Origin: an uncultured Candidatus Bathyarchaeia archaeon
Lineage (GTDB): Archaea > Thermoproteota > Bathyarchaeia > TCS64 > B23
NCBI GenBank assembly: GCA_964525955.1
Contig: CAZGKJ010000001.1
Coordinates: 4,069-68,068 of the forward strand
Length of the DNA stretch: 64,000 nt
Direction: 5' to 3'
Made by a program: the position numbers and the translations under genes
Shown: positions 1-31,658 of the stretch, one piece after another
Layout of the letters: every line of letters begins with the position of its first letter
Numbering within the stretch: the first letter of the stretch is position 1
The notes under the pieces: model-generated
What the model saw: only the letters and a program-made list of their open reading frames with translations
The model's database searches: none
What the model was told of the DNA's origin: nothing

Positions 1-1
1 G

Positions 2-637
2 CCGCATCATCCGCTGGATACGCCGGGGAAGGATACTTGGAGGCATAGGGAGGCTGGAGCTGAGGCCTCGGCCATCATAGCCGATGGAAGAGCCGCCATA
101 TTCATCGATCGACCTCTCACACCCGCTGAGGCTCTGGAGGCTCTGGGGCCCCTCGACTTCGTCATCCTCGAAGGCTTCAAATCCATCGAATACATACCAA
201 GAATACTCGTCGTGAGGAAGCCCAGCGAGGTTATGGAGCTCTCCAACGGCTTGGAGATCGCCGTAGTCTCGGGTCAAAGCCTAGAGGGATTGGGGATCGA
301 GGCGCCAACGCTGAGCTTTGATGGGGTTGAGGAGCTCGCCTCCATCGTCGAGGAGAGGGCCATCCCCCTTCTCCCAGGATTGAACTGCGGTGGATGCGGC
401 TATGAGAGCTGCAGGGAGCTCGCCCTCGCAGCCCTCAGGGGTGAGGCCGATCCCTCAAGATGCATTCATTTAAGTGTTGGAGATGTGGTGCTCCGAGTTG
501 ACGGGCGGCGGATACCCCTAAACCCCTATGTGAGGAGGGTCTTCAGAGATGTCCTCAAGGCCCTCGTCGGCACCTTGAGGGGATGCGAGGAGGCTAAGCG
601 GATAGAGGTATCTGTGGAGGCTGAGGGGGATGTCTGA
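2..637 (+). CDS. mobB: Molybdopterin-guanine dinucleotide biosynthesis protein MobB fused to a C-terminal putative Fe-S domain; 5' end lies outside the window
   Basis: Frame 2 is open from the window start. The translation '...PLDFVILEGFKSIEY...' carries the MobB 'EGFK' motif. The C-terminal part has 'LNCGGCGYESC...C', a four-Cys motif typical of the PF04060-type putative Fe-S domain. Confidence 0.6.
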   Translation, partial: PHHPLDTPGKDTWRHREAGAEASAIIADGRAAIFIDRPLTPAEALEALGPLDFVILEGFKSIEYIPRILVVRKPSEVMELSNGLEIAVVSGQSLEGLGIEAPTLSFDGVEELASIVEERAIPLLPGLNCGGCGYESCRELALAALRGEADPSRCIHLSVGDVVLRVDGRRIPLNPYVRRVFRDVLKALVGTLRGCEEAKRIEVSVEAEGDV

Positions 638-1406
638 GGTGCTTTGGATATGCATCGACAGCAACGAGGCCTCCCAGAGGCCTGAGATCGTCAACTATCT
701 CAGGCTTTCGGGATGCGAGGTGGAGATGAGGAGGCTTCCAATCTGCGACTACGTCGTCTCAGATCGCTGCGGAATAGAGCGGAAGGACGCCCATGACCTC
801 GCTAACAGCCTGAAGGATGGAAGACTCTTCAACCAGGCGAGGGAGATCGCAGAGGCCTATGAGAGGCCTATACTGATCCTTGAGGGGAGGCTCACAGCCG
901 TTCTGAGACGTAGCAGGATGAGGCCCTCCTCCCTCTATGGAGCCCTCGCAAGCCTCGCCTTAGACTACGGCTTCTCCATCATACCGACGGCCGACGCCTA
1001 TGCGACGTCGGTTCTACTTCAGAGATTGGCCTATAGGGAGCAGGTGGAGGAGAGGAGGCCGCCGCAGCTTAGAAGCGTGAGTCGACGTATGCCGCTGCAG
1101 GAGCAGCAGCTATTCCTCCTGTCAGGCCTCCCAAACATCGGTCGATCCCTCGCCGAGGATCTCCTAAAACACTTCAACACTCCGATAAGGGTGTTGGAGG
1201 AGCTCGCCTCAGCAGAGATCAAAATCTCGAGAACTGGAAAGACGAGGAGATTGGAGGGCCCTTTAAAGGCGGTGAGGGGGATAGGGCCGAGGATCGTGGA
1301 GGAGGCCAAGAGGCTTTTAACCACACCCTACACTATGAAGGCTGAGGGGGAGGAGGCCCCCGATCTAACCCGATACCTTAAGGGATATGGCTCCCAGGGG
1401 AGTTAA
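630..1406 (+). CDS. XPF/ERCC4-family structure-specific nuclease (short crenarchaeal-type, nuclease + HhH2, no helicase domain)
   Basis: The ERCC4 nuclease signature 'GIERKDAHDL' (ERK motif) is present. The C-terminus has tandem helix-hairpin-helix 'LLSGLPNIGRSLAEDLL'. At 258 aa the length matches crenarchaeal XPF. Confidence 0.75.
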   Translation: MSEVLWICIDSNEASQRPEIVNYLRLSGCEVEMRRLPICDYVVSDRCGIERKDAHDLANSLKDGRLFNQAREIAEAYERPILILEGRLTAVLRRSRMRPSSLYGALASLALDYGFSIIPTADAYATSVLLQRLAYREQVEERRPPQLRSVSRRMPLQEQQLFLLSGLPNIGRSLAEDLLKHFNTPIRVLEELASAEIKISRTGKTRRLEGPLKAVRGIGPRIVEEAKRLLTTPYTMKAEGEEAPDLTRYLKGYGSQGS

Positions 1407-1414
1407 AACTTTAA
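1403..1414 (+). promoter_or_regulatory. TATA-like box (TTAAAACTTTAA) about 25 bp upstream of tRNA-Arg
   Basis: An AT-rich hexamer/octamer sits in an otherwise GC-rich context at the canonical archaeal distance from the tRNA 5' end. Confidence 0.4.
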
Positions 1415-1438
1415 TCACAGCCCTCTCCAAATCTCCGT

Positions 1439-1511
1439 GGGCCCGTAGCCGAGTGGATAAGGCGCCGGCCTTCGGAGCCGGAGAGCAGGGGTTCAAATCC
1501 CCTCGGGCCCG
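1439..1511 (+). tRNA. tRNA-Arg (anticodon TCG)
   Basis: The sequence folds as a cloverleaf by eye. It has a 7-bp acceptor stem GGGCCCG/CGGGCCC, a D-arm GCCG-AGTGGATAA-GGCG, an anticodon stem CCGGC/GCCGG with loop CTTCGGA (anticodon TCG), and a T-arm AGGGG-TTCAAAT-CCCCT. The discriminator is G and no CCA is encoded. Confidence 0.85.
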
Positions 1512-1517
1512 CCTGAG

Positions 1518-3461
1518 GTGGAGGCGATGTCAAATCCGCTGGAATCCCTGAGGGGGGAGTGCCGACGCCTCCTTGAGGGAGGCCTTAGGATGCTCTCCAT
1601 CCCTGAACCCCTTGAGCTTAGCTTCTCCAAGCCCCCAAGCCTTGAGATGGGGGAGATATCAACCTCCATCTGCTTCAGGCTCGCCTCTAAGTTGCATAGG
1701 AGTCCGCAGGAGCTGGCCTCGGAGCTGGCCTCAGCCCTCGATCCATCATCGTCTCAGCTCATCGAGTCCGTTGAGGCTGTTGGAGGCTACATAAACTTCC
1801 ACGCCGATCCAGGTGAGTTCTCGAAGCTGACCCTGGAGACAGCCGTGGAGCTGGATGGGGAGTATGGCTTCCTGAAGGCTGAGAGGGCTGAGAGGGTTAT
1901 GGTGGAGCACACCAGCGCCAACCCGAATGGGCCGATACACATCGGGAACGCCAGGAACTCGATTTTGGGCGACGCCCTTGCGAGGATGCTGAGGAGGCGT
2001 GGACATGAGGTTGCCATACACTTCTACGTCGATGACATGGGTAGGCAGGTGGCCATGGCCACCTATGGGTGGAGACTCCTCGGCAGACCCGAGCCCGAGG
2101 GGCCCCCAGACCTATGGGTTGGCACCATCTACGCCTCCGTGAACGTCATCAAGGAGGTGAAGAGGCTTAAGAGGGAGCTGGAGGAGGCCAAGGCCCTCGA
2201 GGCCTATGCACGGGTCAGCGAGATAAACGCCCAGCTCAGCCACTATGCTGCGGCAGCTCAGGAGCTGAGGGAGAGGGCTCCGCAGATCTTCGATAGCCTC
2301 CTCGAGGCCTTGGAGGATGAGGAGGATCCAGATGGGGAGATTTCGAGGTTGAACGCCGAATATGAGCGTGGCGAATCCGAGGCGAGGAGGGATGTTAGGA
2401 GACTCGTCGAATACTGCTTAGAGGGCTTTAGGGAGGCCCTGGGTGAGATCGGAATCCACTTCGACTCCTGGGACTATGAGAGCGACCTCGTCTGGAGTGG
2501 GGCCGTCGACGAGGTGATAGATAGGCTGAGGAGAACCCCCTACACACGCTTCGAGGATGGGGCTCTAATCCTCGACTGTGAGGCTGTGGCGAGAGATTTG
2601 AAGCTGAAGGAGCGTTGGGGCATAAACCCCCGATACGAGATACCTGAACTCGTCTTGGTGAGGGCTGATGGGACAACCCTCTACACGACGAGGGATATCG
2701 CATATTCACTGTGGAAGTTTGAGAGGGTTGACCGAGTCATCAACGTCATCGGATATGAGCAGAGCACGGCTCAGCTCCAGCTTAGGATAGCCCTCGCAGC
2801 CCTCGGCCATGTTGACATCGCCGATAGACAGCGGCACTACGCCTATAAGTTCGTCATCCTCCCAGGGTTGAAGATGAGCGGCCGATTGGGGCGCTACGTC
2901 ACCCTCAGGGAGGTGGTGGAGAAGGCTGTGGAGCTCGCCTATAGGGAGGTGGATGCGAGGTCGCCTGGGCTTCCGGAGGGTGAGAAGCGTCGCATCGCTG
3001 GGATGGTTGGTCATGGAGCTGTGAAGTATGCCTTGCTGAGCGTCGACCCCATGAAGACCGTAGTCTTCGACTGGGATAGAGTTCTGGACTTCGAGAGGAA
3101 TAGCGCCCCCTTCATCCAATACTCCCACGCCAGGGCCTGCAGCATACTCCGCAAGGCTGGGGATCGACCTAAACCTGACTATGGCCTGCTGAGGGATTTG
3201 AAGGAAAGGGAGCTGGTTCATTTCATAGCCTCCTTCCCCGAAGTCTTCCAGGAGGCCGTTGAGGCCCTCAGCCCCCAGGCCATCGCCTCCTACGCCAACC
3301 AGCTCGCTGATAAGTTCAACAGCTTCTATGCGTCTCATCCCGTCTTGAGGGCTGAGCCTGAGGGCCTGGCTGGGGCGAGGCTGATGCTCGTCGACGCCGT
3401 CAGGGTTGTCCTGAGGAACGCCCTATCGGTTCTTGGCATAGAGGCTCCGGAGCGGATGTAG
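1518..3461 (+). CDS. argS: Arginyl-tRNA synthetase
   Basis: This is a class I aaRS with the HIGH-type motif 'PNGPIHIGNARN'. The 647-aa length and overall similarity fit ArgRS. The start is GTG 1518 or ATG 1527, only 7-16 nt after the tRNA-Arg. Confidence 0.9.
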   Translation: MEAMSNPLESLRGECRRLLEGGLRMLSIPEPLELSFSKPPSLEMGEISTSICFRLASKLHRSPQELASELASALDPSSSQLIESVEAVGGYINFHADPGEFSKLTLETAVELDGEYGFLKAERAERVMVEHTSANPNGPIHIGNARNSILGDALARMLRRRGHEVAIHFYVDDMGRQVAMATYGWRLLGRPEPEGPPDLWVGTIYASVNVIKEVKRLKRELEEAKALEAYARVSEINAQLSHYAAAAQELRERAPQIFDSLLEALEDEEDPDGEISRLNAEYERGESEARRDVRRLVEYCLEGFREALGEIGIHFDSWDYESDLVWSGAVDEVIDRLRRTPYTRFEDGALILDCEAVARDLKLKERWGINPRYEIPELVLVRADGTTLYTTRDIAYSLWKFERVDRVINVIGYEQSTAQLQLRIALAALGHVDIADRQRHYAYKFVILPGLKMSGRLGRYVTLREVVEKAVELAYREVDARSPGLPEGEKRRIAGMVGHGAVKYALLSVDPMKTVVFDWDRVLDFERNSAPFIQYSHARACSILRKAGDRPKPDYGLLRDLKERELVHFIASFPEVFQEAVEALSPQAIASYANQLADKFNSFYASHPVLRAEPEGLAGARLMLVDAVRVVLRNALSVLGIEAPERM

Positions 3462-3472
3462 CTTCGCTCCCT

Positions 3473-3480
3473 TTATATAA
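3473..3480 (+). promoter_or_regulatory. TATA box (TTTATATAA) about 30 bp upstream of the htpX-like start
   Basis: Sequence motif; the spacing is consistent with a leaderless archaeal transcript. Confidence 0.4.
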
Positions 3481-3503
3481 TACCCCTCCACTGAGGCGAT
3501 CTG

Positions 3504-4499
3504 GTGCGCATGAGTCTCTGGAGGCTTAGGCTCTCCATCCTTGGGACCCTCGCCCTCATCATAGGCGTCTCAACCCTCGGCTTCTCCCTACTCCTATGGC
3601 TGCTGGGAGCCTTCAGCCTCCTCACCCTCTGCATATTGACAGCCCTCTTCAACATACTCCAATGGCTGATGGCCCCCTATCTCATCAACGCCATATATGG
3701 GGTGAGGCCTCTCGGGGAGGATGAGCATCCTGAGCTCCATCGGATCGTAGATGAGCTATCTCTGCGTTCAGGTATCGAGAGGCCGAGGTTGATGCTCGCT
3801 GAGATGTCGATTCCCAACGCCTTCGCCTATGGTTCGCCGCTGACCGGTAACATGGTCGCCGTCACCAGGGGCCTATTGAGGCATCTTGAGTTGGAGGAGG
3901 TGGAGGCCGTCATCGGCCATGAGCTTGGTCATATTAGGCATAGGGATGTTCAGGTGATGATGTTCGTCTCCTTCCTCCCCTCCCTCTTCTATCTACTCGC
4001 CAGGTCAACCCTCTACCCCTACTACTATGGCTACTATCCCCGTAGGAGGCGTGGAGACTACTCCGCCCTCGCCCTGGTCGGCGCCATTTCGATGCTCATA
4101 TACTTCATCCTCCTCCTCTTCACCCTCCACCTAAGCAGGCTGAGGGAATACTACGCCGATCAGCATAGCGTCTCCATCGTCGATGATGGGGCGAGGAAGC
4201 TGGCTGAGGCCCTGGCGAAGATATCAACCTCAACCAGCAGGATGGGGCGATCCGAGACGAGGGGACTTGGAAGCTTCAAAACACTCTTCATCTCAGATCC
4301 CGATAGGGCCCTGGCAGATGCGGCTGACCTCCAGAGGCTCCGATATGGTGGAAGAGACGATGAGCTTGTGAGGAGGCTTCTGGAGCGGAAGCTAACCTGG
4401 TTTGATAGATTCATGGAGATCTTCTCTACGCATCCAAATGTAGTTAAGCGGATAAGGGCTCTCCTCGAAGCCTACGGAGGATTCCCCCCAGAATCCTGA
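3504..4499 (+). CDS. htpX: HtpX-like M48 zinc metalloprotease (membrane)
   Basis: An N-terminal hydrophobic region is followed by the HEXXH motif 'GHELGHIRHRD', typical of the M48/HtpX family. The likely true start is ATG 3510. Confidence 0.8.
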   Translation: MRMSLWRLRLSILGTLALIIGVSTLGFSLLLWLLGAFSLLTLCILTALFNILQWLMAPYLINAIYGVRPLGEDEHPELHRIVDELSLRSGIERPRLMLAEMSIPNAFAYGSPLTGNMVAVTRGLLRHLELEEVEAVIGHELGHIRHRDVQVMMFVSFLPSLFYLLARSTLYPYYYGYYPRRRRGDYSALALVGAISMLIYFILLLFTLHLSRLREYYADQHSVSIVDDGARKLAEALAKISTSTSRMGRSETRGLGSFKTLFISDPDRALADAADLQRLRYGGRDDELVRRLLERKLTWFDRFMEIFSTHPNVVKRIRALLEAYGGFPPES

Positions 4500-5052
4500 A
4501 GTCATCCTCCAAAACCCTTAGGAGCTCCTTTGCGTAGAGGGCTGCGGCTGGATGGTAGAGGGGGAAGAGGAGCACCCCTCCCCAGGGGGCCTCAGCCTCG
4601 AAGCATCTGCCGTGAACCCTGCTTATGGAGGGGGCCTCATAGCCGAAGCGTTTCAGGAGGTATCCGGCGGCGGAGTTCCCCATGGGCGCTATCACCCTCG
4701 GCTGGATGATGGCGAGCTGCCTCTCCAGATATGGGGTGCAGGCCTCAACCTCATCAGCCCTCGGCCTCCTATTTCCAGGGGGTCTACACTTCAATATGTT
4801 CCCGATGTAGACATCCTCCCTCCTCAAACCTATATCGGCTAAGAGTCTGTCGAGGAGTCTTCCCGCAGAGCCCACGAAGGGTCTACCCGTCTCATCCTCA
4901 ACCCTTCCAGGGGCCTCCCCCACGAGGAATAGCTCAGCCTCCAGGCTTCCCTCCCCCACGACGGCGTTCTTCCTGAGACTTCCAAGCCTACACTTTCTAC
5001 ATCTCCAAACCTCCTCCGCCAGCTCCCTCATCAACTCCTCCTTCGATGTCAT
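4444..5052 (-). CDS. Uracil-DNA glycosylase, family 4 (thermostable Fe-S UDG)
   Basis: The motifs 'GEAPGRVEDETGRPFVGSAGRLL', N-terminal 'CRKCRL' cysteines and 'HPAAALY' are characteristic of family 4 UDG. The gene is convergent with htpX, overlapping its 3' end by 56 nt. Confidence 0.85.
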   Translation of the reverse strand: MTSKEELMRELAEEVWRCRKCRLGSLRKNAVVGEGSLEAELFLVGEAPGRVEDETGRPFVGSAGRLLDRLLADIGLRREDVYIGNILKCRPPGNRRPRADEVEACTPYLERQLAIIQPRVIAPMGNSAAGYLLKRFGYEAPSISRVHGRCFEAEAPWGGVLLFPLYHPAAALYAKELLRVLEDDFRILGGILRRLRGEPLSA

Positions 5053-5062
5053 CCCCTCACCC

Positions 5063-6245
5063 CTATATGGCTCCCATCTCCCTAAGCCTGCTGATCTCCT
5101 CGAGGCTTAATCCGAGGATCTCCCTTAAAACCCACTCCGTATCCCCACCCAGCCTTGGAGCGGGGCCTCTGGGTCCTGGCCTCGTCTCCGACATCTTAAT
5201 CGGCGATCCCAATAGGTTGACCCTGCCCAATCCAGGCTGGTTTAGTGGGATTATCATCTCCCTCGCCTCAGCTATATGCTCATCCTCAACGATGTCCTTC
5301 ACCGTGTATATTGGAGCCGCTGGAACCCCATGGCCGTTTAGGAGCTCCACGATCTCCTCAACACGCCTCTTAGAAGTCCAGGCCTCTATCTCCCTCCTCA
5401 ACTCCTCATGATGCTCAACCCTATCCGGATTTGTCTTGAATCTCTCATCATCGGCGAGGTCTCTCAGCCCAGTGACCTCTATGAAGCGCCTCCAGATTCG
5501 ATCGTTGGCGACGCCTATGATTACCCATCCGTCCAGCGCCCTGAAGGAGTCGTAGGGGTAGACGAATTCATAGCGGTTGCCGATGCGCCCTGGTATGACG
5601 CCCTCCACGAAGTATCTCTGCGGAATATTCTCAAGGGATGCGAAGACGGAGTCCACCATGGCGACGTCGATGAGCTGCCCCCTGCCGGTTCGCTCTCTCA
5701 TCCATAGGGCCGCCAGTATGCCTATGCAGCAGAAGAGGGCTGCGAGGATGTCGCCGATTGCTGTTCCAACCCTCGTCGGAGGCGAGTCGGGCCAACCCGT
5801 TACGCTGAGGAGGCCTCCCATCGCCTGGGCTATTATGTCGTATGCCGCCCTATGCCTATAGGGCCCCGTCCTCCCGAAGCCTGAGATGGAGGCGTAGATG
5901 ATCCCTGGATTCACCTCCCTGAGGTTTTCGTAGCCGAGGCCTACGCTCCATGGTTCCAGGCCTGAAGTTCTCAAGTAGCACATCGCTCCGCCTCACGAGC
6001 TCCAGGAAGATTCGTCTCCCCTCAGGATGCTTGAGGTTAAGGGTGATGCTCCTCTTCCCCCTGTTGAGATTTATGTAGTATAGGCTCTCCCCATGTAGGA
6101 AGGGTGGGAAGGCCCTTGAGTCGTCTCCCCGACCAGGCGTCTCAACCTTAATCACCTCAGCGCCGAGATCTGCGAGGATCATAGAGCAATAGGGGCCGGC
6201 CAGCACCCTACTTAGATCGAGAACCCTCACGCCGCTTAGATCCAT
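5063..6245 (-). pseudogene. Family III CoA-transferase (CaiB/BaiF-like), split by a frameshift near 5940-5950
   Basis: The N-terminal ORF (6245..5856) reads 'VLDLSRVLAGPYCSMILADLGAEVIKVE...ENFRPGTMER'. The protein then continues in another frame (from ~5945) as 'GLGYENLREVNPGIIYASISGFGRTGP...'. Together these reconstitute the contiguous CaiB-family core, implying a 1-nt indel or a sequencing error. Confidence 0.7.
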
Positions 6246-6295
6246 CCCACCCCATGATGAGATTCCACACTTAAATCGAGGCGGTGAAGATGTAG

Positions 6296-6331
6296 CCTTA
6301 TAAATTTAGGTATCTAATCTATCTAGATAGC
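6296..6331 (+). promoter_or_regulatory. Divergent promoter region with a TATA box (TTATAAA, ~6299-6305) and a perfect 12-bp palindrome CTATCTAGATAG (6319-6330) abutting the PadR start codon
   Basis: Read directly from the sequence. The palindrome lies at the predicted TSS of the PadR-family regulator gene, so it is a plausible autoregulatory operator. Confidence 0.5.
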
Positions 6332-6682
6332 ATGCATCACCCTCATCGCCATCTGAGGTTTCCGATGAGGGGCCTCCTCCACATCACAATCCTCAGCATT
6401 CTAAGGGGTAGGGAGGCTCATGGAGCTGAGATCGGTAGACTCCTCAGAGACCGATATGGCATCACTGTGCCTAAGGCTATGGTCTACGGCCTGTTAAGGC
6501 GTTTGGAGGGGCATGGCCTCGTCTCCTCCCAGTGGAGTGTTGAGGGGAGTGGCCCAGCGAGGAGGATGTATCGGATAACGGAGGAGGGCTTAGACTACCT
6601 CGACGACTCCCTGAATAGGCTTAAGAGGGTTAAGTCCCTCATAGAACTCCTCATATTTGAGGCTGATCCCGGGAGGGTTTAG
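6332..6682 (+). CDS. PadR-family transcriptional regulator
   Basis: The winged-helix signature '...ILSILRGREAHGAEIGRLL...GLLRRLEGHGLVSSQW...RRMYRITEEGLDYL' is present. Confidence 0.85.
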   Translation: MHHPHRHLRFPMRGLLHITILSILRGREAHGAEIGRLLRDRYGITVPKAMVYGLLRRLEGHGLVSSQWSVEGSGPARRMYRITEEGLDYLDDSLNRLKRVKSLIELLIFEADPGRV

Positions 6683-6768
6683 CCCTGACCAAGGGTCGGG
6701 GAAGGAGCTGGAGGGAGACCCTGAGAACGGCGAGGCGTCTACTAAGCTACATCACACCCTACTGGCAG

Positions 6769-8556
6769 TTGAAGGCTATACTGCTGCTCATCGTAGCTAC
6801 GAATATCCTGGAGGTGCTTTCACCCATCATAATCGGCGGCGTCGTCGATCTCGTCGGCACCATCGCAATTGGGAAGCCCCCTGCTGAGAGGGGCGTCGAA
6901 GCCTCCATCTATCGATTGGCTCAGCCCCTATCGCTTTTCATCTCCCATCTCTTCTCCCTCAGCTCTAATCATGCCCTCCTCCTGGTTCTCTCCCTATCCC
7001 TAATCGTCCTCGCAGCCATCACAGGTTTGGGAAACTATCTGAGGCGATATGCCTCAGCCTGGATATCTCAGCGTGGCTCCTTCGAGCTTAGGAGAGACCT
7101 CTACGATGCCCTCCTGAGGCAGTCCTTCCGATTCTATGATCGGCGGAGGACGGGGCAGCTAATAGCGAGGGCGACGGGTGATATAAGGCAGATTGAGCGC
7201 TTCCTCGGCTTCGGCCTCCCAACACTCCTCTCATCGCTCCTCCTCACAATCCTCGTCGTCTCATCCCTCCTCGCCCTCGATTGGAGGCTCACCCTCCTCT
7301 CAGGCGTCGTCCTCCCCTTGATAGCGCTGACGGCTGGTAGATACGCCATGGAGATTGGCCCCCTCTGGTTTGAGGTTCGTGAACGCTTCGGCAGGCTAAC
7401 TTCCATCGTCCAGGAGGTCTTGGCGGCCATCAAGCTGGTGAAGGGCTTCGCCAGGGAGGACTACATGATGGAGCGCTTCTCCAGGGAGTGCGGTGGATAT
7501 CTCAGGGTTCTCATCGACACCGCCAGGGTTAGGGCCATCTATCTCCCACTCTCAACCCTGCTGGCCACCCTTGGGGGAGTCCTCATCATATGGTATGGCG
7601 GCCTGGAGGTCATGCGGGGCATCCTCACCATCGGAGGCCTCGTCGCCTTCTACCTCTACCTAACGAGGCTTCAGTGGCCGATTAGGAGCATAGCCTTCCT
7701 GGTGGGGATGCTTCAGAGGGCTGCCGCCGCAGCTGGGAGGGTCTTTGAGGTTATAGATGCCAGGGAGATGGTGGAGGAGCGGCCAGACGCCGTAGAGCTG
7801 GGCGAGATAAGGGGGGAGGTCGCCCTCAGAGATGTCTGGTTCAGCTACGATGGGGAGCGTATGGTGTTGAAGGGCGTCAGCCTCGAGGTGAAGCCGGGTG
7901 AACGGGTTGCCATCCTCGGCCCTCCGGGTTCTGGGAAGACCTCCATCATAAACCTGATCCCGAGATTCTACGACCCCCAGAGGGGCTCCGTCAAGATAGA
8001 TGGCGTGGATGTCAGGGATGTGAAGCTGAGGTCCCTGAGGCGTCAAATCGGCATCGTGAGGCAGGACCCCTTCATCTTCTCGACGACCATCAGGGAGAAC
8101 ATCTCCTACGGCGCTGAGGGGGCGTCGATGGATGAGATCGTCGAGGCGGCTAAGATGGCGAGGATACACAGCTTCATCGAGGCCCTCCCAGAGGGCTATG
8201 AGACTCGAGTCGGGGAGCGTGGAGTCACCCTCAGCGGGGGTGAGCGTCAGCGCATCGCAATAGCCCGAGTCATCCTGAGGAATCCCAGGATCGTCATCCT
8301 CGACGACTCCACATCGAATATCGACGCCGAGACTGAGGAGGAGATAAGACTCGCCCTCGAGGAGCTCTTCAAGGGTAGAACGGTCATAATCATAACTCAT
8401 AGGGTCTCGATGGCTCGATGGGCCGATCGCATCATCGTTCTGAGGGGTGGCAGGGTCGTGGAGGAGGGCTCCCATGAGGAGCTCCTGATGAGGAGGGGTT
8501 TCTACCATCGCCTATACATGGAGCAGGTGGGTGAGCCAGATGGGTATGGGTCATAG
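6769..8556 (+). CDS. ABC exporter, fused permease/ATPase subunit 1 (MsbA/multidrug type)
   Basis: Six N-terminal TM helices are followed by Walker A 'GPPGSGKTS', the signature 'LSGGERQRIAIARV' and Walker B 'ILDDSTS'. The called TTG start is probably not the true N-terminus. The upstream in-frame peptide '...RETLRTARRLLSYITPYWQL' looks like a native ABC-exporter N-terminus, but no ATG/GTG/TTG exists between the upstream stop (6664) and 6769. Confidence 0.85.
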   Translation: MKAILLLIVATNILEVLSPIIIGGVVDLVGTIAIGKPPAERGVEASIYRLAQPLSLFISHLFSLSSNHALLLVLSLSLIVLAAITGLGNYLRRYASAWISQRGSFELRRDLYDALLRQSFRFYDRRRTGQLIARATGDIRQIERFLGFGLPTLLSSLLLTILVVSSLLALDWRLTLLSGVVLPLIALTAGRYAMEIGPLWFEVRERFGRLTSIVQEVLAAIKLVKGFAREDYMMERFSRECGGYLRVLIDTARVRAIYLPLSTLLATLGGVLIIWYGGLEVMRGILTIGGLVAFYLYLTRLQWPIRSIAFLVGMLQRAAAAAGRVFEVIDAREMVEERPDAVELGEIRGEVALRDVWFSYDGERMVLKGVSLEVKPGERVAILGPPGSGKTSIINLIPRFYDPQRGSVKIDGVDVRDVKLRSLRRQIGIVRQDPFIFSTTIRENISYGAEGASMDEIVEAAKMARIHSFIEALPEGYETRVGERGVTLSGGERQRIAIARVILRNPRIVILDDSTSNIDAETEEEIRLALEELFKGRTVIIITHRVSMARWADRIIVLRGGRVVEEGSHEELLMRRGFYHRLYMEQVGEPDGYGS

Positions 8557-28787: not shown

Positions 28788-31658
28788 CTAATATCTGACG
28801 GGATTTCGGGCTTCATGCTCTATATCCATGGGCCTCATCGAGAGAAGCTTTTCAACGGTCTCTAAGAAGTCTCTCGTTTCTCCTCTTCTATCCAACTCGT
28901 CTCGAAGCCATAGAGGATCTATAACAGGTATGCATTCATAGTCTATTACGTTAACGTCTAGAGCACCTTGACCAAGGTTTGTTCGACCGATAACCTCCAT
29001 ACTAGTGTAGGTGGTTATAGAGTTTAATGTAGCAAAGATGAAGCGTGGGTCTAGACTCTTATACTTATCTTTTAACCTTCCTCCGAAAAATCTCTTGTCT
29101 ATCTGCGCACCAGTAATATTGTTCATGTATATTGCGAAATTCTTGTGAATTGCATTTTTAAATATGAACATCGCTCCAGAGGTATCTGGCAATCTAACCC
29201 ACGTCGGCTCATCTATATATTTGACGATGGTTGGGAACCTCCTATTTGTTTTATGTTCTTCGATCACGAATCTATGGCACCATTCCACATAACGTTTAAT
29301 ACCAGGTGCATCTACATCATTAATATTCCCTACCCATATAACGTAATCATCCCTTCTCCGTCTAGGAAGTCTATCTATCCTATAAGTTGAACCTCGAATA
29401 TGTGCGAGTCTCATAAGAGGTCTTAAATACCGTTTTTCCAGCTTCAAAAGTGTTCTAGATATAACACTTTTAAGCTCTAGATAGTTTTCGTCCTCCCTAT
29501 AATACCTCCAGTACTTCGATGGGAGATAGAATAGTTCATTCGCATTAGTAGTGAGTCCTCGATATATTTCAAGCACATCTTTCAATAACACCATTGGTAT
29601 TTCATCTCTGATAAAACCGAATATAAGATTGAGGTATGTTTTTGATCCTCTGAATATACCCCACTTCCCTAGCCTCTCTTCAATCTCCTGAAGGGCTCTC
29701 TTTCTAACGGCTATAACTCTCATATCCTCATTCTCTAGGATCGAATAATTTTCAGCTTCGAGACTACACGAGTCTGCATAAGAGTAAAGACCCTCTATTC
29801 CCTCATAATACCTCTCGTTAGCTGTATAGTCCACAGATGGAGGTGGATCTCCTATTAAGCTTCGCAGAGGCTTCTTAAGGAAGATGAACCTTAATACATG
29901 ATCTGGACTCCTATCTTTTTCAGCAACTATGATATTAGTTATTATCTCAGCATCTTCAAACCACTTCTCAACAAGTGACTCCACAACATAGTGGATCATG
30001 AAGTTTTCCATAAGCCATCTCTTTAAAGGCGAACCATACTCAGCGTTCATCCAAGAGTTTTCAACTATAAACCCTAGTCTCCCCCCTTCCTCCAGTAGTT
30101 TCCCCCCTCCAACTAGGAAGTAAGCGTATATCGAAGCCTTCTTGCTCCAGCCTGAGATATCTGATACCGCCTTCATGAGATACTCCTTATATCTTCTGTC
30201 GTAAAACGCCATAGCCATCTCCTCTTGTCTGGTATACGGTGGATTGGTGACGACATAACTGTACCCTGGGGGGAGCTCTATTTTGAAGAAGTCGCCGTGA
30301 TGAATCTTAGGAGTATACCTGTACATTTTCTTAATCTCTTCAAGTGCTTGAATGTATAGGTTGATCTTGGAGAGCATGGAAGCTAGCTTATCTATGTCAA
30401 TCCCCTCAACGAACTCGAAGACATCCCTCTCTAAACCATATTTTATTCTCCAGAGGTTTAAAGCTCTGACCAGGAAAGTGCCAGAACCACAGGCTAGATC
30501 TAAAATGCGACCAGGTTTATCTAATGTAGCTGTGAGTATGAGGTCTACGATCTTTGTGTCTGTGTAATGCTGCCCTAAAAGATGTCTCCTCTCTTCATAA
30601 ATCAGCCCCTCGAAAATCCTACCGATCACGTCTACGTTTATCTCGCCCCACCGTATCTGATTAAGATAGGAGAGGAGTTGTTTTATCGATGATAAGGAAG
30701 GCTCTACGATAGGAAGTCTATCCACAACATTTGTGCCAAATATCTCCTCAAAGTCGCCGGTTCTCTCAATCGCATACTCAAATAACATATCGAATATTTT
30801 CTTAAATAGCTGTGCATCCGATATGTCGCCTATGGAGGAAAGGTTTTCACGTAGTTTAGCAGCCATTTCAGCATCTATACTTTGAAGCACCATATAGAAG
30901 AGCATTTTAAGCGATAAAGTGTAAAGCTGTTCCTTCAACATCAACATAAGATAGTTCCGAAGCTCGGAGTCATTTCGAGGGCTTTCAAGCCCCCTTTCCT
31001 TTCGCCAACTCTCAAAGCACTTTCTCACCTCTAATTCGCTTCGATATAAATACTCAAGCCTGGTTAACCCCCGTGATGCTCCCTCCTCAATATACCTTCT
31101 TATAGTATAGATAACCTCCGTGCTTAGATCAAGTGTTTTCCCTTCAAGGATTTCCCTAAACCTAAGTAAGAACATTTCAAGATTCCTTCTGGCTTCTCTA
31201 TTCACAGATATCTGCTTATAATCATTTATTGACCTAACCCATGGCATTATCTGAAATGGAAAATCAGAAACAGGAACCCAAATCCTTGTACGCCTCCCAT
31301 GAATATACTCCAAAAGAGTAGGTTGACGCTTCCTAAAAGTAATATATCTGAAGACTTTCAAATATCGCATGTTATGTGTCGCATAAAACTGTAAACCCAT
31401 GTTCTTCCTATACCATTCAGCATATCTTAAAGCCTGCTCGTTCAACTCAGGATCACTTAGTAGAATTTCCGGTCTCTTAACCTCGATCACAGCCACGGGT
31501 TCACCCTTATAGTAAAGTTTAACGTCAGGCTTACCGGAAGGGGTGCGCCAGTTGGCTTCGGCATCAAAGCCTAAACCTTCTCCTACTTCCTTAATAACAG
31601 AGATGAGTTCCGTTACATAGGTCTCTTCTGTAGGCTCCTCAACCATAATATTCAACAA
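28788..31658 (-). CDS. Type IIG restriction-modification enzyme (fused PD-(D/E)xK endonuclease + gamma-class N6-adenine DNA methyltransferase + TRD; MmeI-like)
   Basis: The N-terminus has 'GKPDVKLYYKGEPVAVIEVKRPE' (PD...EVK nuclease motif). The central MTase has motif I 'LDLACGSGTFL' and motif IV 'VVTNPPYT'. The 956-aa single polypeptide is markedly more AT-rich than its flanks. Confidence 0.75.
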   Translation of the reverse strand: MLNIMVEEPTEETYVTELISVIKEVGEGLGFDAEANWRTPSGKPDVKLYYKGEPVAVIEVKRPEILLSDPELNEQALRYAEWYRKNMGLQFYATHNMRYLKVFRYITFRKRQPTLLEYIHGRRTRIWVPVSDFPFQIMPWVRSINDYKQISVNREARRNLEMFLLRFREILEGKTLDLSTEVIYTIRRYIEEGASRGLTRLEYLYRSELEVRKCFESWRKERGLESPRNDSELRNYLMLMLKEQLYTLSLKMLFYMVLQSIDAEMAAKLRENLSSIGDISDAQLFKKIFDMLFEYAIERTGDFEEIFGTNVVDRLPIVEPSLSSIKQLLSYLNQIRWGEINVDVIGRIFEGLIYEERRHLLGQHYTDTKIVDLILTATLDKPGRILDLACGSGTFLVRALNLWRIKYGLERDVFEFVEGIDIDKLASMLSKINLYIQALEEIKKMYRYTPKIHHGDFFKIELPPGYSYVVTNPPYTRQEEMAMAFYDRRYKEYLMKAVSDISGWSKKASIYAYFLVGGGKLLEEGGRLGFIVENSWMNAEYGSPLKRWLMENFMIHYVVESLVEKWFEDAEIITNIIVAEKDRSPDHVLRFIFLKKPLRSLIGDPPPSVDYTANERYYEGIEGLYSYADSCSLEAENYSILENEDMRVIAVRKRALQEIEERLGKWGIFRGSKTYLNLIFGFIRDEIPMVLLKDVLEIYRGLTTNANELFYLPSKYWRYYREDENYLELKSVISRTLLKLEKRYLRPLMRLAHIRGSTYRIDRLPRRRRDDYVIWVGNINDVDAPGIKRYVEWCHRFVIEEHKTNRRFPTIVKYIDEPTWVRLPDTSGAMFIFKNAIHKNFAIYMNNITGAQIDKRFFGGRLKDKYKSLDPRFIFATLNSITTYTSMEVIGRTNLGQGALDVNVIDYECIPVIDPLWLRDELDRRGETRDFLETVEKLLSMRPMDIEHEARNPVRY

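Follow-up and report, generated by a model that had tools for sequence, protein, structure and literature searches.

The question raised by this locus is whether a transfer RNA (tRNA) gene and the gene of its cognate synthetase are transcribed together. The locus lies in a 64,000-nucleotide (nt) stretch of DNA (hereafter the window) from an uncultured Candidatus Bathyarchaeia archaeon, positions 4,069 to 68,068 of contig CAZGKJ010000001.1. A tRNA-Arg(UCG) gene stands here directly upstream of argS, the gene for arginyl-tRNA synthetase (ArgRS), on the same strand; a promoter-like element precedes the tRNA, and neither a terminator nor an independent promoter is found between the two genes. Judged from sequence and conservation, the promoter element, the tRNA and argS probably form one archaeal transcription unit. 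Co-transcription is the best reading of the locus because no T-run terminator intervenes, there is no room for a TATA box belonging to argS itself, and the layout is conserved in relatives. In this central point the original prediction, which had proposed a co-transcribed tRNA-mRNA processed by RNase P and RNase Z, still holds. We infer the transcript, the enzymes that process it and any physiological benefit.

A single tRNA was found by ARAGORN in the window, tRNA-Arg with the anticodon TCG, at 1439-1513 of the forward strand. The Rfam family RF00005 matches 1439-1511 over its full length (model positions 1-71), with a score of 73.1 bits (gathering score 29) and E = 4.5e-14. Both calls agree with the tRNA-Arg(TCG) ending at 1511 that had originally been read from the letters alone. 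In the Rfam scan of the whole window at the gathering thresholds, tRNA was the single family found; neither a T-box nor another leader family of aminoacyl-tRNA synthetase genes was detected. The anticodon loop is CUUCGGA, which places U34, C35 and G36 in the anticodon, with C35 and G36 as expected for arginine. In the D-loop, AGUGGAUAA, an A directly follows G18 and G19 on the 3' side and was read as A20, a position assigned by eye. C35, G36 and A20 of the D-loop are the major elements by which ArgRS recognizes tRNA-Arg. The cloverleaf persisted when the tRNA was folded together with its 3' flank. The fold z-score of the isolated tRNA was unremarkable, as is normal for tRNAs rich in G and C.

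The discriminator base G1511 is followed by CCT (1512-1514); in other words, the terminal CCA is not fully encoded. The 3' CCA is encoded in most relatives (…GGGCCCGCCA; e.g. L015, L017 and L027 of the loci surveyed below). In the thermophilic B23-like clade to which the window belongs, the encoded CCA has been lost, and CCT, CTT, CTG or GTG is found instead. This loss implies that the clade depends on a CCA-adding enzyme.

The downstream gene encodes a full-length class I ArgRS with N-terminal, catalytic and C-terminal DALR anticodon-binding domains: the Pfam families Arg_tRNA_synt_N (E = 1.5e-14), tRNA-synt_1d (class I (R) catalytic; E = 5.4e-27) and DALR_1 (E = 1.6e-33) are all matched. The HIGH motif is present as PIHIGN and is invariant in 18 homologues. 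Thousands of ArgRS homologues exist, the closest being those of Bathyarchaeia (96-57% identical, 643-648 amino acids), and the best named match is from 'Candidatus Bathyarchaeota archaeon B23' (85%). The homologues begin with M-S-N-P-L, of which M1, P4 and L5 are invariant among the 18 sequences. Because this N-terminus is shared, the start of argS is assigned by comparison to ATG 1527, not to GTG 1518. Both codons had been offered before, together with a distance of 7-16 nt between tRNA and argS. The near-contiguity and the ATG are retained and the GTG is dropped; the gap from the discriminator base to ATG 1527 is 15 nt. ArgRS is among the few synthetases that require tRNA for amino-acid activation. 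This makes co-expression of the tRNA and ArgRS thematically attractive, yet it is no evidence for it.

The element upstream of the tRNA consists of an A-rich stretch resembling the B recognition element (BRE) and a TATA-like box, AAAACTTTAAT. The TATA centre is located about 26 nt before G1439, the +1 position of the tRNA, and a spacing of about 26 nt is canonical in archaea. The sequence AAAACTTTAA (pattern AAAAYTTTAW) has a single occurrence in the 64 kb window, where 0.01 would be expected, and 14 relatives have an equivalent 'gaaaNgCTTTAAT' whose distance to the downstream tRNA is 23-28 nt. L002, L004 and the metagenome contig L152 retain the block AAAACTTTA...CTCCAAATCTCC, with divergence further upstream. 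The uniqueness of AAAACTTTAA and the conservation of the element bear out the earlier claim of a single promoter-like element, located upstream of the tRNA. The promoter and terminator scan that was used is of the sigma-70 type and is not applicable to archaeal promoters; with this unsuited scan no promoter was returned, and the only terminator-like match was a hairpin at the argS stop codon.

The stop codon of the upstream gene, which encodes an ERCC4-domain nuclease, is TAA at 1404-1406 and overlaps the start of the promoter element. A break in synteny was considered as the reason why conservation begins at the promoter, and was rejected: tblastn shows that the ERCC4 gene is syntenic upstream in most relatives. 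The exception is L001, in which a real inversion is present. Its breakpoints are inside the tRNA, so that the promoter was replaced while the order promoter-tRNA-spacer-argS was retained.

This neighbourhood allows for a larger unit, in which transcription would come mainly from the genes of an iron-sulphur (FeS) protein and ERCC4 and pass through the tRNA into argS, AAAACTTTAAT being unimportant. The FeS, ERCC4, tRNA and argS genes are co-oriented and syntenic in 9-12 loci, and in the window the ERCC4 stop codon is separated from the tRNA by 32 nt that hold no T-run. However, the TATA/BRE-like box keeps a constant spacing to the tRNA, also in loci with ERCC4 80-730 nt away (L004, L015). In addition, L001 has no ERCC4 gene upstream, yet a different TATA box, CCTATATG, occupies the same position. 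Dominance of the larger unit is therefore considered unlikely; it would be compatible with the unit led by the tRNA promoter and does not exclude it.

In the tight loci, in which 11-19 nt lie between the discriminator base and the argS start, the tRNA fills the 60-80 nt upstream of argS, and no room is left for an independent TATA box. Where the tRNA is at least 75 nt away or absent, a conserved TATA-like box belonging to argS stands 45-60 nt upstream of the gene, with a GGAG motif after it. These boxes depend on the clade (CTTATAA, gtaacaaaCTTATAA, cgtaactctCTTTAA, CTCTTTAA and ATTAAAATATAA). In the separated loci, the tRNA is followed by genes on the opposite strand before argS is reached.

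A promoter of argS might still be hidden inside the tRNA. The T-loop sequence TTCAAAT at 1492-1498 could serve as a weak TATA box and lead to a (nearly) leaderless mRNA from about 1519-1523; the two genes would then give independent, abutting transcripts. The centre of TTCAAAT falls about 26 nt upstream of 1521, which is the proper archaeal TATA spacing, and a leaderless message had been assumed earlier. However, most relatives with the tight layout read TTCGAGT or TTCGAAT, neither of which is TATA-like. The only AT-rich stretch at the right distance is a generic T-loop; GTTCAAATC is found in the T-loop of many archaeal tRNA genes, which counts against a promoter function. A start at about 1521 would also delete the conserved Shine-Dalgarno core at -12 to -6, and the tRNA transcript would still be without a terminator. 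A promoter in the T-loop is thus regarded as very improbable.

The 15-nt spacer itself seems to carry the signal for translation of argS. Its Shine-Dalgarno-like sequence begins 4 nt past the discriminator base. Among 30 distinct spacers the consensus is R-A-G-G/T-T-G-A at -12 to -6, with GTG at -9/-10 in 26 of them; in the tight loci the core is GGTGA/GTGATC, 6-12 nt upstream of the argS start. This consensus matches the core of GGAGGUGAUC, the Shine-Dalgarno sequence canonical in archaea, which is complementary to the 3' end of 16S ribosomal RNA as known for archaea in general. When the segment 1436-1590 was folded, no structure sequestering the Shine-Dalgarno sequence was seen (z = -1.8, unremarkable), nor was any extra conserved structure seen in the spacer or the early coding region. 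From these sequences, argS looks like a Shine-Dalgarno-led cistron of the operon-internal type. The description of the argS message as leaderless is not supported, since a cut at the discriminator would leave a 15-nt leader with GAGGTGGAGG, the core of which is conserved in the 26 spacers mentioned above. For annotation, ATG 1527 is preferable to GTG 1518, and the message, if transcripts confirm the unit, would be described as led by a Shine-Dalgarno sequence and not as leaderless.

The layout was surveyed in 80 GTDB species-representative loci, the best 80 of 409, all Bathyarchaeia-like. In its default mode ARAGORN found 40 tRNAs near argS in these loci, and 39 of the 40 are tRNA-Arg; two of the 39, first called Pro and Gly, are intron-containing tRNA-Arg(CCG) of 94-95 nt. 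The tight layout is present in 15 of the 80 loci (Table 1). A pattern scan of JGI metagenomes ('tRNA 3' end, 10-30 nt, AAYCCNCT') gave 85 stretches, of which 37 encode ArgRS 14-17 nt downstream of tRNA-Arg. Since the tight layout recurs in 15 GTDB loci and 37 metagenome contigs, the adjacency is, on this comparison, not due to chance, and the pairing is conserved in relatives as the original prediction had asked to be surveyed.

In a quick neighbour-joining tree of ArgRS only, the tight loci belong to the upper major clade, where they are spread over six separate subclades. Inheritance of the tight layout from the ancestor of this clade is therefore the simplest explanation, and a probable one. 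The arrangement had been called uncommon; this is correct in general and incorrect within Bathyarchaeia, where it is common. The upper clade also contains 11 species with the tRNA 75-1411 nt upstream, and 11 without a detected tRNA, three of which have short upstream sequence. In the other major clade, tRNA-Arg (GCG, intron-containing CCG and one TCT) is 0.25-3.9 kb upstream, or a TCG tRNA is convergent downstream, and opposite-strand genes intervene between tRNA-Arg and argS. The order ERCC4, tRNA-Arg, argS was kept in 12 related loci according to tblastn.

Several points weigh against a single functional unit. A T-run of at least four within 50 nt past the tRNA was found in 0 of 16 tight loci versus 10 of 27 separated loci, and archaeal termination relies on oligo-T tracts, but this comparison is confounded because, in tight loci, most of the 50 nt belong to coding sequence. 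The sequence GAGGTGGAGG has nine exact copies in the 64 kb, mostly within genes (coding GAG-GTG-GAG); its rating as statistically unusual in the window was rejected for a genome this rich in purines. The Shine-Dalgarno argument consequently rests on conservation across species. The whole block FeS-ERCC4-tRNA-argS-M48-UDG (M48, a protease; UDG, presumably uracil-DNA-glycosylase-like) is syntenic, and conservation of the adjacency could largely be vertical inheritance. By the same comparison co-transcription is not essential: several lineages have lost or broken the linkage without obvious cost, and the coupling appears dispensable because relatives with broken linkage gave argS a promoter of its own. 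Finally, the transcription start, the read-through and the processing sites are all inferred for this organism.

If the tRNA and argS do form one unit, its expression may be pictured as follows. Since the same, single RNA polymerase makes both tRNA and mRNA in archaea, a co-transcript would need nothing out of the ordinary. The polymerase would initiate at the tRNA 5' end or a few nt upstream, leaving a leader of 0-5 nt as estimated from the TATA spacing. It would pass from the tRNA directly into argS, because neither an oligo-T terminator nor a second promoter intervenes. The tRNA 5' end would be made by RNase P, if a short leader exists, and the 3' end by RNase Z or an equivalent enzyme cleaving past G1511. 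A CCA-adding enzyme would then complete the 3' end, since CCA is not encoded here. Maturation at L007, L009 and similar loci would additionally involve the splicing endonuclease. The released argS mRNA, with its 15-nt leader, might be translated via the Shine-Dalgarno sequence GAGGUGGAGG; alternatively, argS might be translated directly on the unprocessed precursor.

The outcome would be coupling of ArgRS, at the level of the promoter, with one minor arginine isoacceptor. Arginine codons in the window (open reading frames of at least 150 amino acids) are extremely skewed: AGG makes up 59%, AGA 19%, and CGA and CGG together 12.5%. The tRNA linked to argS reads the minor codons CGA and CGG only, and because these are no more than 12.5% of the arginine codons, the coupling concerns a minor isoacceptor.

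The coupling might go further if excess free ArgRS bound the real tRNA-Arg on the argS precursor and kept the 30S subunit from binding or RNase Z from cutting. The attached functional tRNA-Arg would then be a cis-operator, and the output of ArgRS would depend on how much ArgRS is present relative to tRNA-Arg. The geometry is plausible: no tight locus departs from a spacer of 11-19 nt, the acceptor end is in every case within a few nt of the Shine-Dalgarno sequence, and the linked tRNA is always the cognate one. Control of synthetases through tRNA-like mRNA elements is established elsewhere, as in E. coli thrS and in yeast HisRS (for the latter, PMC6542539). However, a short spacer is equally expected from minimal Shine-Dalgarno spacing and genome compaction, and the spacer and early coding region hold no extra conserved structure. 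Within the same clade, moreover, the 11 species with separated genes have gained an ordinary promoter, and the 11 others mentioned above show no tRNA, the upstream sequence of three of these being too short for certainty. Such autoregulation is regarded as improbable, and the current view of synthetase regulation is unchanged unless it is demonstrated. If it were true, this would be an archaeal feedback loop built on a real tRNA and not on a mimic.

The suggested arrangement of one transcript for tRNA and mRNA can be compared with several known systems. In the E. coli thrU-tyrU-glyT-thrT-tufB operon, tRNAs and the mRNA of a translation factor are made from one promoter and split by RNase P and 3' processing. 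It differs from the present locus in being bacterial, in that its tRNAs are not cognate to the product, and in its processing enzymes and promoter type. In the E. coli thrS operator, bound by ThrRS, and in Gram-positive T-box leaders, a tRNA or tRNA mimicry is used in the leader of a synthetase mRNA beside the ribosome-binding site. These are mimics or tRNA-binding riboswitches, whereas here a real tRNA gene is present and regulation is hypothetical. T-box leaders of synthetase genes are treated in PMC2879506.

Two archaeal cases are closer. In Methanosarcina and other archaea, the tRNA-Pyl gene pylT directly precedes the gene of its synthetase, pylS, and the pair is treated and regulated as an 'incorporation module', pylTS (PMC12626013). 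The likeness is that of an archaeal tRNA gene beside its own synthetase gene. However, pylTS is a horizontally mobile cassette for expansion of the genetic code, accompanied by pylBCD, whereas here the synthetase is a canonical housekeeping enzyme and the tRNA an ordinary elongator; the 11-19 nt spacer with its Shine-Dalgarno sequence is a feature of the tRNA-Arg-argS pair, and no sequence relationship to pylTS exists. In Thermococcus kodakarensis, the tRNA-Lys gene TKt3 is inside the 5' untranslated region of TK0306, which is 159 nt long, according to differential RNA sequencing (PMC4247193). There too an archaeal tRNA is embedded in the leader of a protein-coding transcript, as that method showed there and as is proposed here; TK0306 is a DEAD-box helicase, not a cognate synthetase. 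Release by RNase Z from tRNA co-transcripts, including tRNA-snoRNA, is proposed and discussed in the same source.

No report of a tRNA-Arg-argS unit was found in the full-text literature searched, and such absence is no proof of novelty; an apparent match, PMC12513839, was irrelevant. Co-transcripts of tRNA and mRNA and cognate tRNA-synthetase modules such as pylTS are already known. What is added here is a conserved, cognate, housekeeping example in Bathyarchaeia. Should transcripts confirm it, the locus would show clearly, and with phylogenetic conservation, how a housekeeping aminoacyl-tRNA synthetase and one of its own tRNAs are expressed in one primary transcript, in an uncultured archaeal class. 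It would also be a model locus in which processing of an archaeal tRNA 3' end simultaneously makes the 5' end of an mRNA. Sister species, in which the arrangement is tight, separated or lost, would then form a natural comparison set bearing on any fitness or regulatory value of tRNA-synthetase co-expression.

Table 1. Features of the tRNA-Arg-argS locus in the window and of related loci. Positions without a locus name are those of the window.
Feature	Position or loci	Strand	Basis and remarks
ERCC4-domain (XPF/Hef-like) nuclease gene	630-1406	+	Pfam ERCC4, E = 1.7e-29
Archaeal promoter-like element: A-rich BRE-like stretch and TATA-like box AAAACTTTAAT	1405-1415	+	sequence and conservation
tRNA-Arg(UCG)	1439-1511	+	T34 at 1472, no intron, discriminator G1511; ARAGORN and Rfam
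15-nt spacer CCTGAGGTGGAGGCG	1512-1526	+	Shine-Dalgarno-like GAGGTGGAGG at 1515-1524; no T-run
argS, arginyl-tRNA synthetase, 644 amino acids	1527-3461	+	start ATG 1527; Pfam domains and homologue N-termini
Probable end of unit: hairpin across argS stop codon (3449-3470), then CTTTATATAA	3449-3479	+	terminator-like match and sequence
Tight loci	L001-L004, L007, L009, L015, L017, L022, L025, L027, L029, L032, L036, L050		
Intron-containing tRNA-Arg	L007, 3893-3986		
Intron-containing tRNA-Arg	L009, 3182-3276		
Intron-containing tRNA-Arg	L034, 1478-1591		matches tRNA-Arg profile
Intron-containing tRNA-Arg	L041, 1895-2003		matches tRNA-Arg profile
Intron-containing tRNA-Arg	L048, 1471-1592		matches tRNA-Arg profile
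Intron-containing tRNA-Arg	L053, 98-202		matches tRNA-Arg profile
Intron-containing tRNA-Arg	L061, 592-702		matches tRNA-Arg profile
Intron-containing tRNA-Arg	L063, 1082-1188		matches tRNA-Arg profile

At the downstream end, the sequence CTTTATATAA after the argS hairpin is also a canonical TATA box (TTTATATAA), about 25-30 nt upstream of the start of the next gene (GTG 3504 / ATG 3510), an M48 protease (Pfam Peptidase_M48). The M48 gene thus has a textbook TTTATATAA box, whereas argS has no comparable one in the same window. On this sequence, the M48 gene is likely to be leaderless, unlike argS.

The order of an FeS-domain protein, ERCC4, tRNA-Arg, argS, M48, a UDG-like gene (-) and a CoA-transferase-like gene (-) in the window (212-5983) and among the loci L002-L075 is conserved in a large part of the clade. 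The names of the final two genes are provisional, being guesses from sequence.

The tRNA-Arg linked to argS varies at the wobble base. The contig L152 is 95% identical to window 1-7500, and its tRNA (3677-3750) is the same as that of the window except for C34 in place of T34, which changes UCG to CCG. At this position (window 1472), T/UCG is found in the window, L001-L003 and L106, and C/CCG in L152 and L004. In L083 two inverted tRNA-Arg genes are present, at 1506-1579 and 7761-7834, with about 6.2 kb between them. Apart from base 34, the two copies agree at all of their 73 nt and in a 6-nt trailer; UCG is the anticodon beside argS and CCG that of the far copy. In L001, about 4 kb upstream of the tRNA (4-3992) is inverted relative to L083, and the promoter is that of the paralogous tRNA-Arg copy. 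From this pattern, both the L001 inversion and the CCG/UCG flips would stem from recombination, or gene conversion, of the inverted tRNA-Arg paralogues with each other. The second tRNA-Arg copy would lie outside the window, about 4.8 kb before its start.

Many tRNA-Arg genes near argS in Bathyarchaeia are interrupted by an intron, or apparently by two, and some of these introns occupy non-canonical positions. Such genes are labelled wrongly by ARAGORN, as Pro, Gly, Val, Ser, Phe or Cys; inspection by eye gives Arg(CCG), Arg(GCG) and, in one case, Arg(TCT). The identities given in its intron mode (Ser-AGA, Phe-AAA, Val-TAC, Trp) were rejected as implausible, six of the genes fitting the tRNA-Arg profile over its full length (nhmmer, by eye). 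L052 and L060 gave weak 'Trp' calls in this mode.

Two surveyed contigs bear bacterial record titles, L022 (DATKWN010000081.1, Krumholzibacteriaceae) and L030 (DATLAV010000026.1, Patescibacteria), yet both are contigs with argS of the Bathyarchaeia type, and L022 additionally carries the tRNA-Arg-argS unit. Bin contamination or mislabelling is the probable cause of these labels. Elsewhere in the window, the segment 28001-32000 is an island of low G+C content (0.44 against about 0.57 elsewhere). Its reading frame at 28788-31658 (-) encodes a 956-amino-acid Eco57I-like / N6 DNA methylase protein, probably a type IIG restriction-modification enzyme gained by horizontal transfer.

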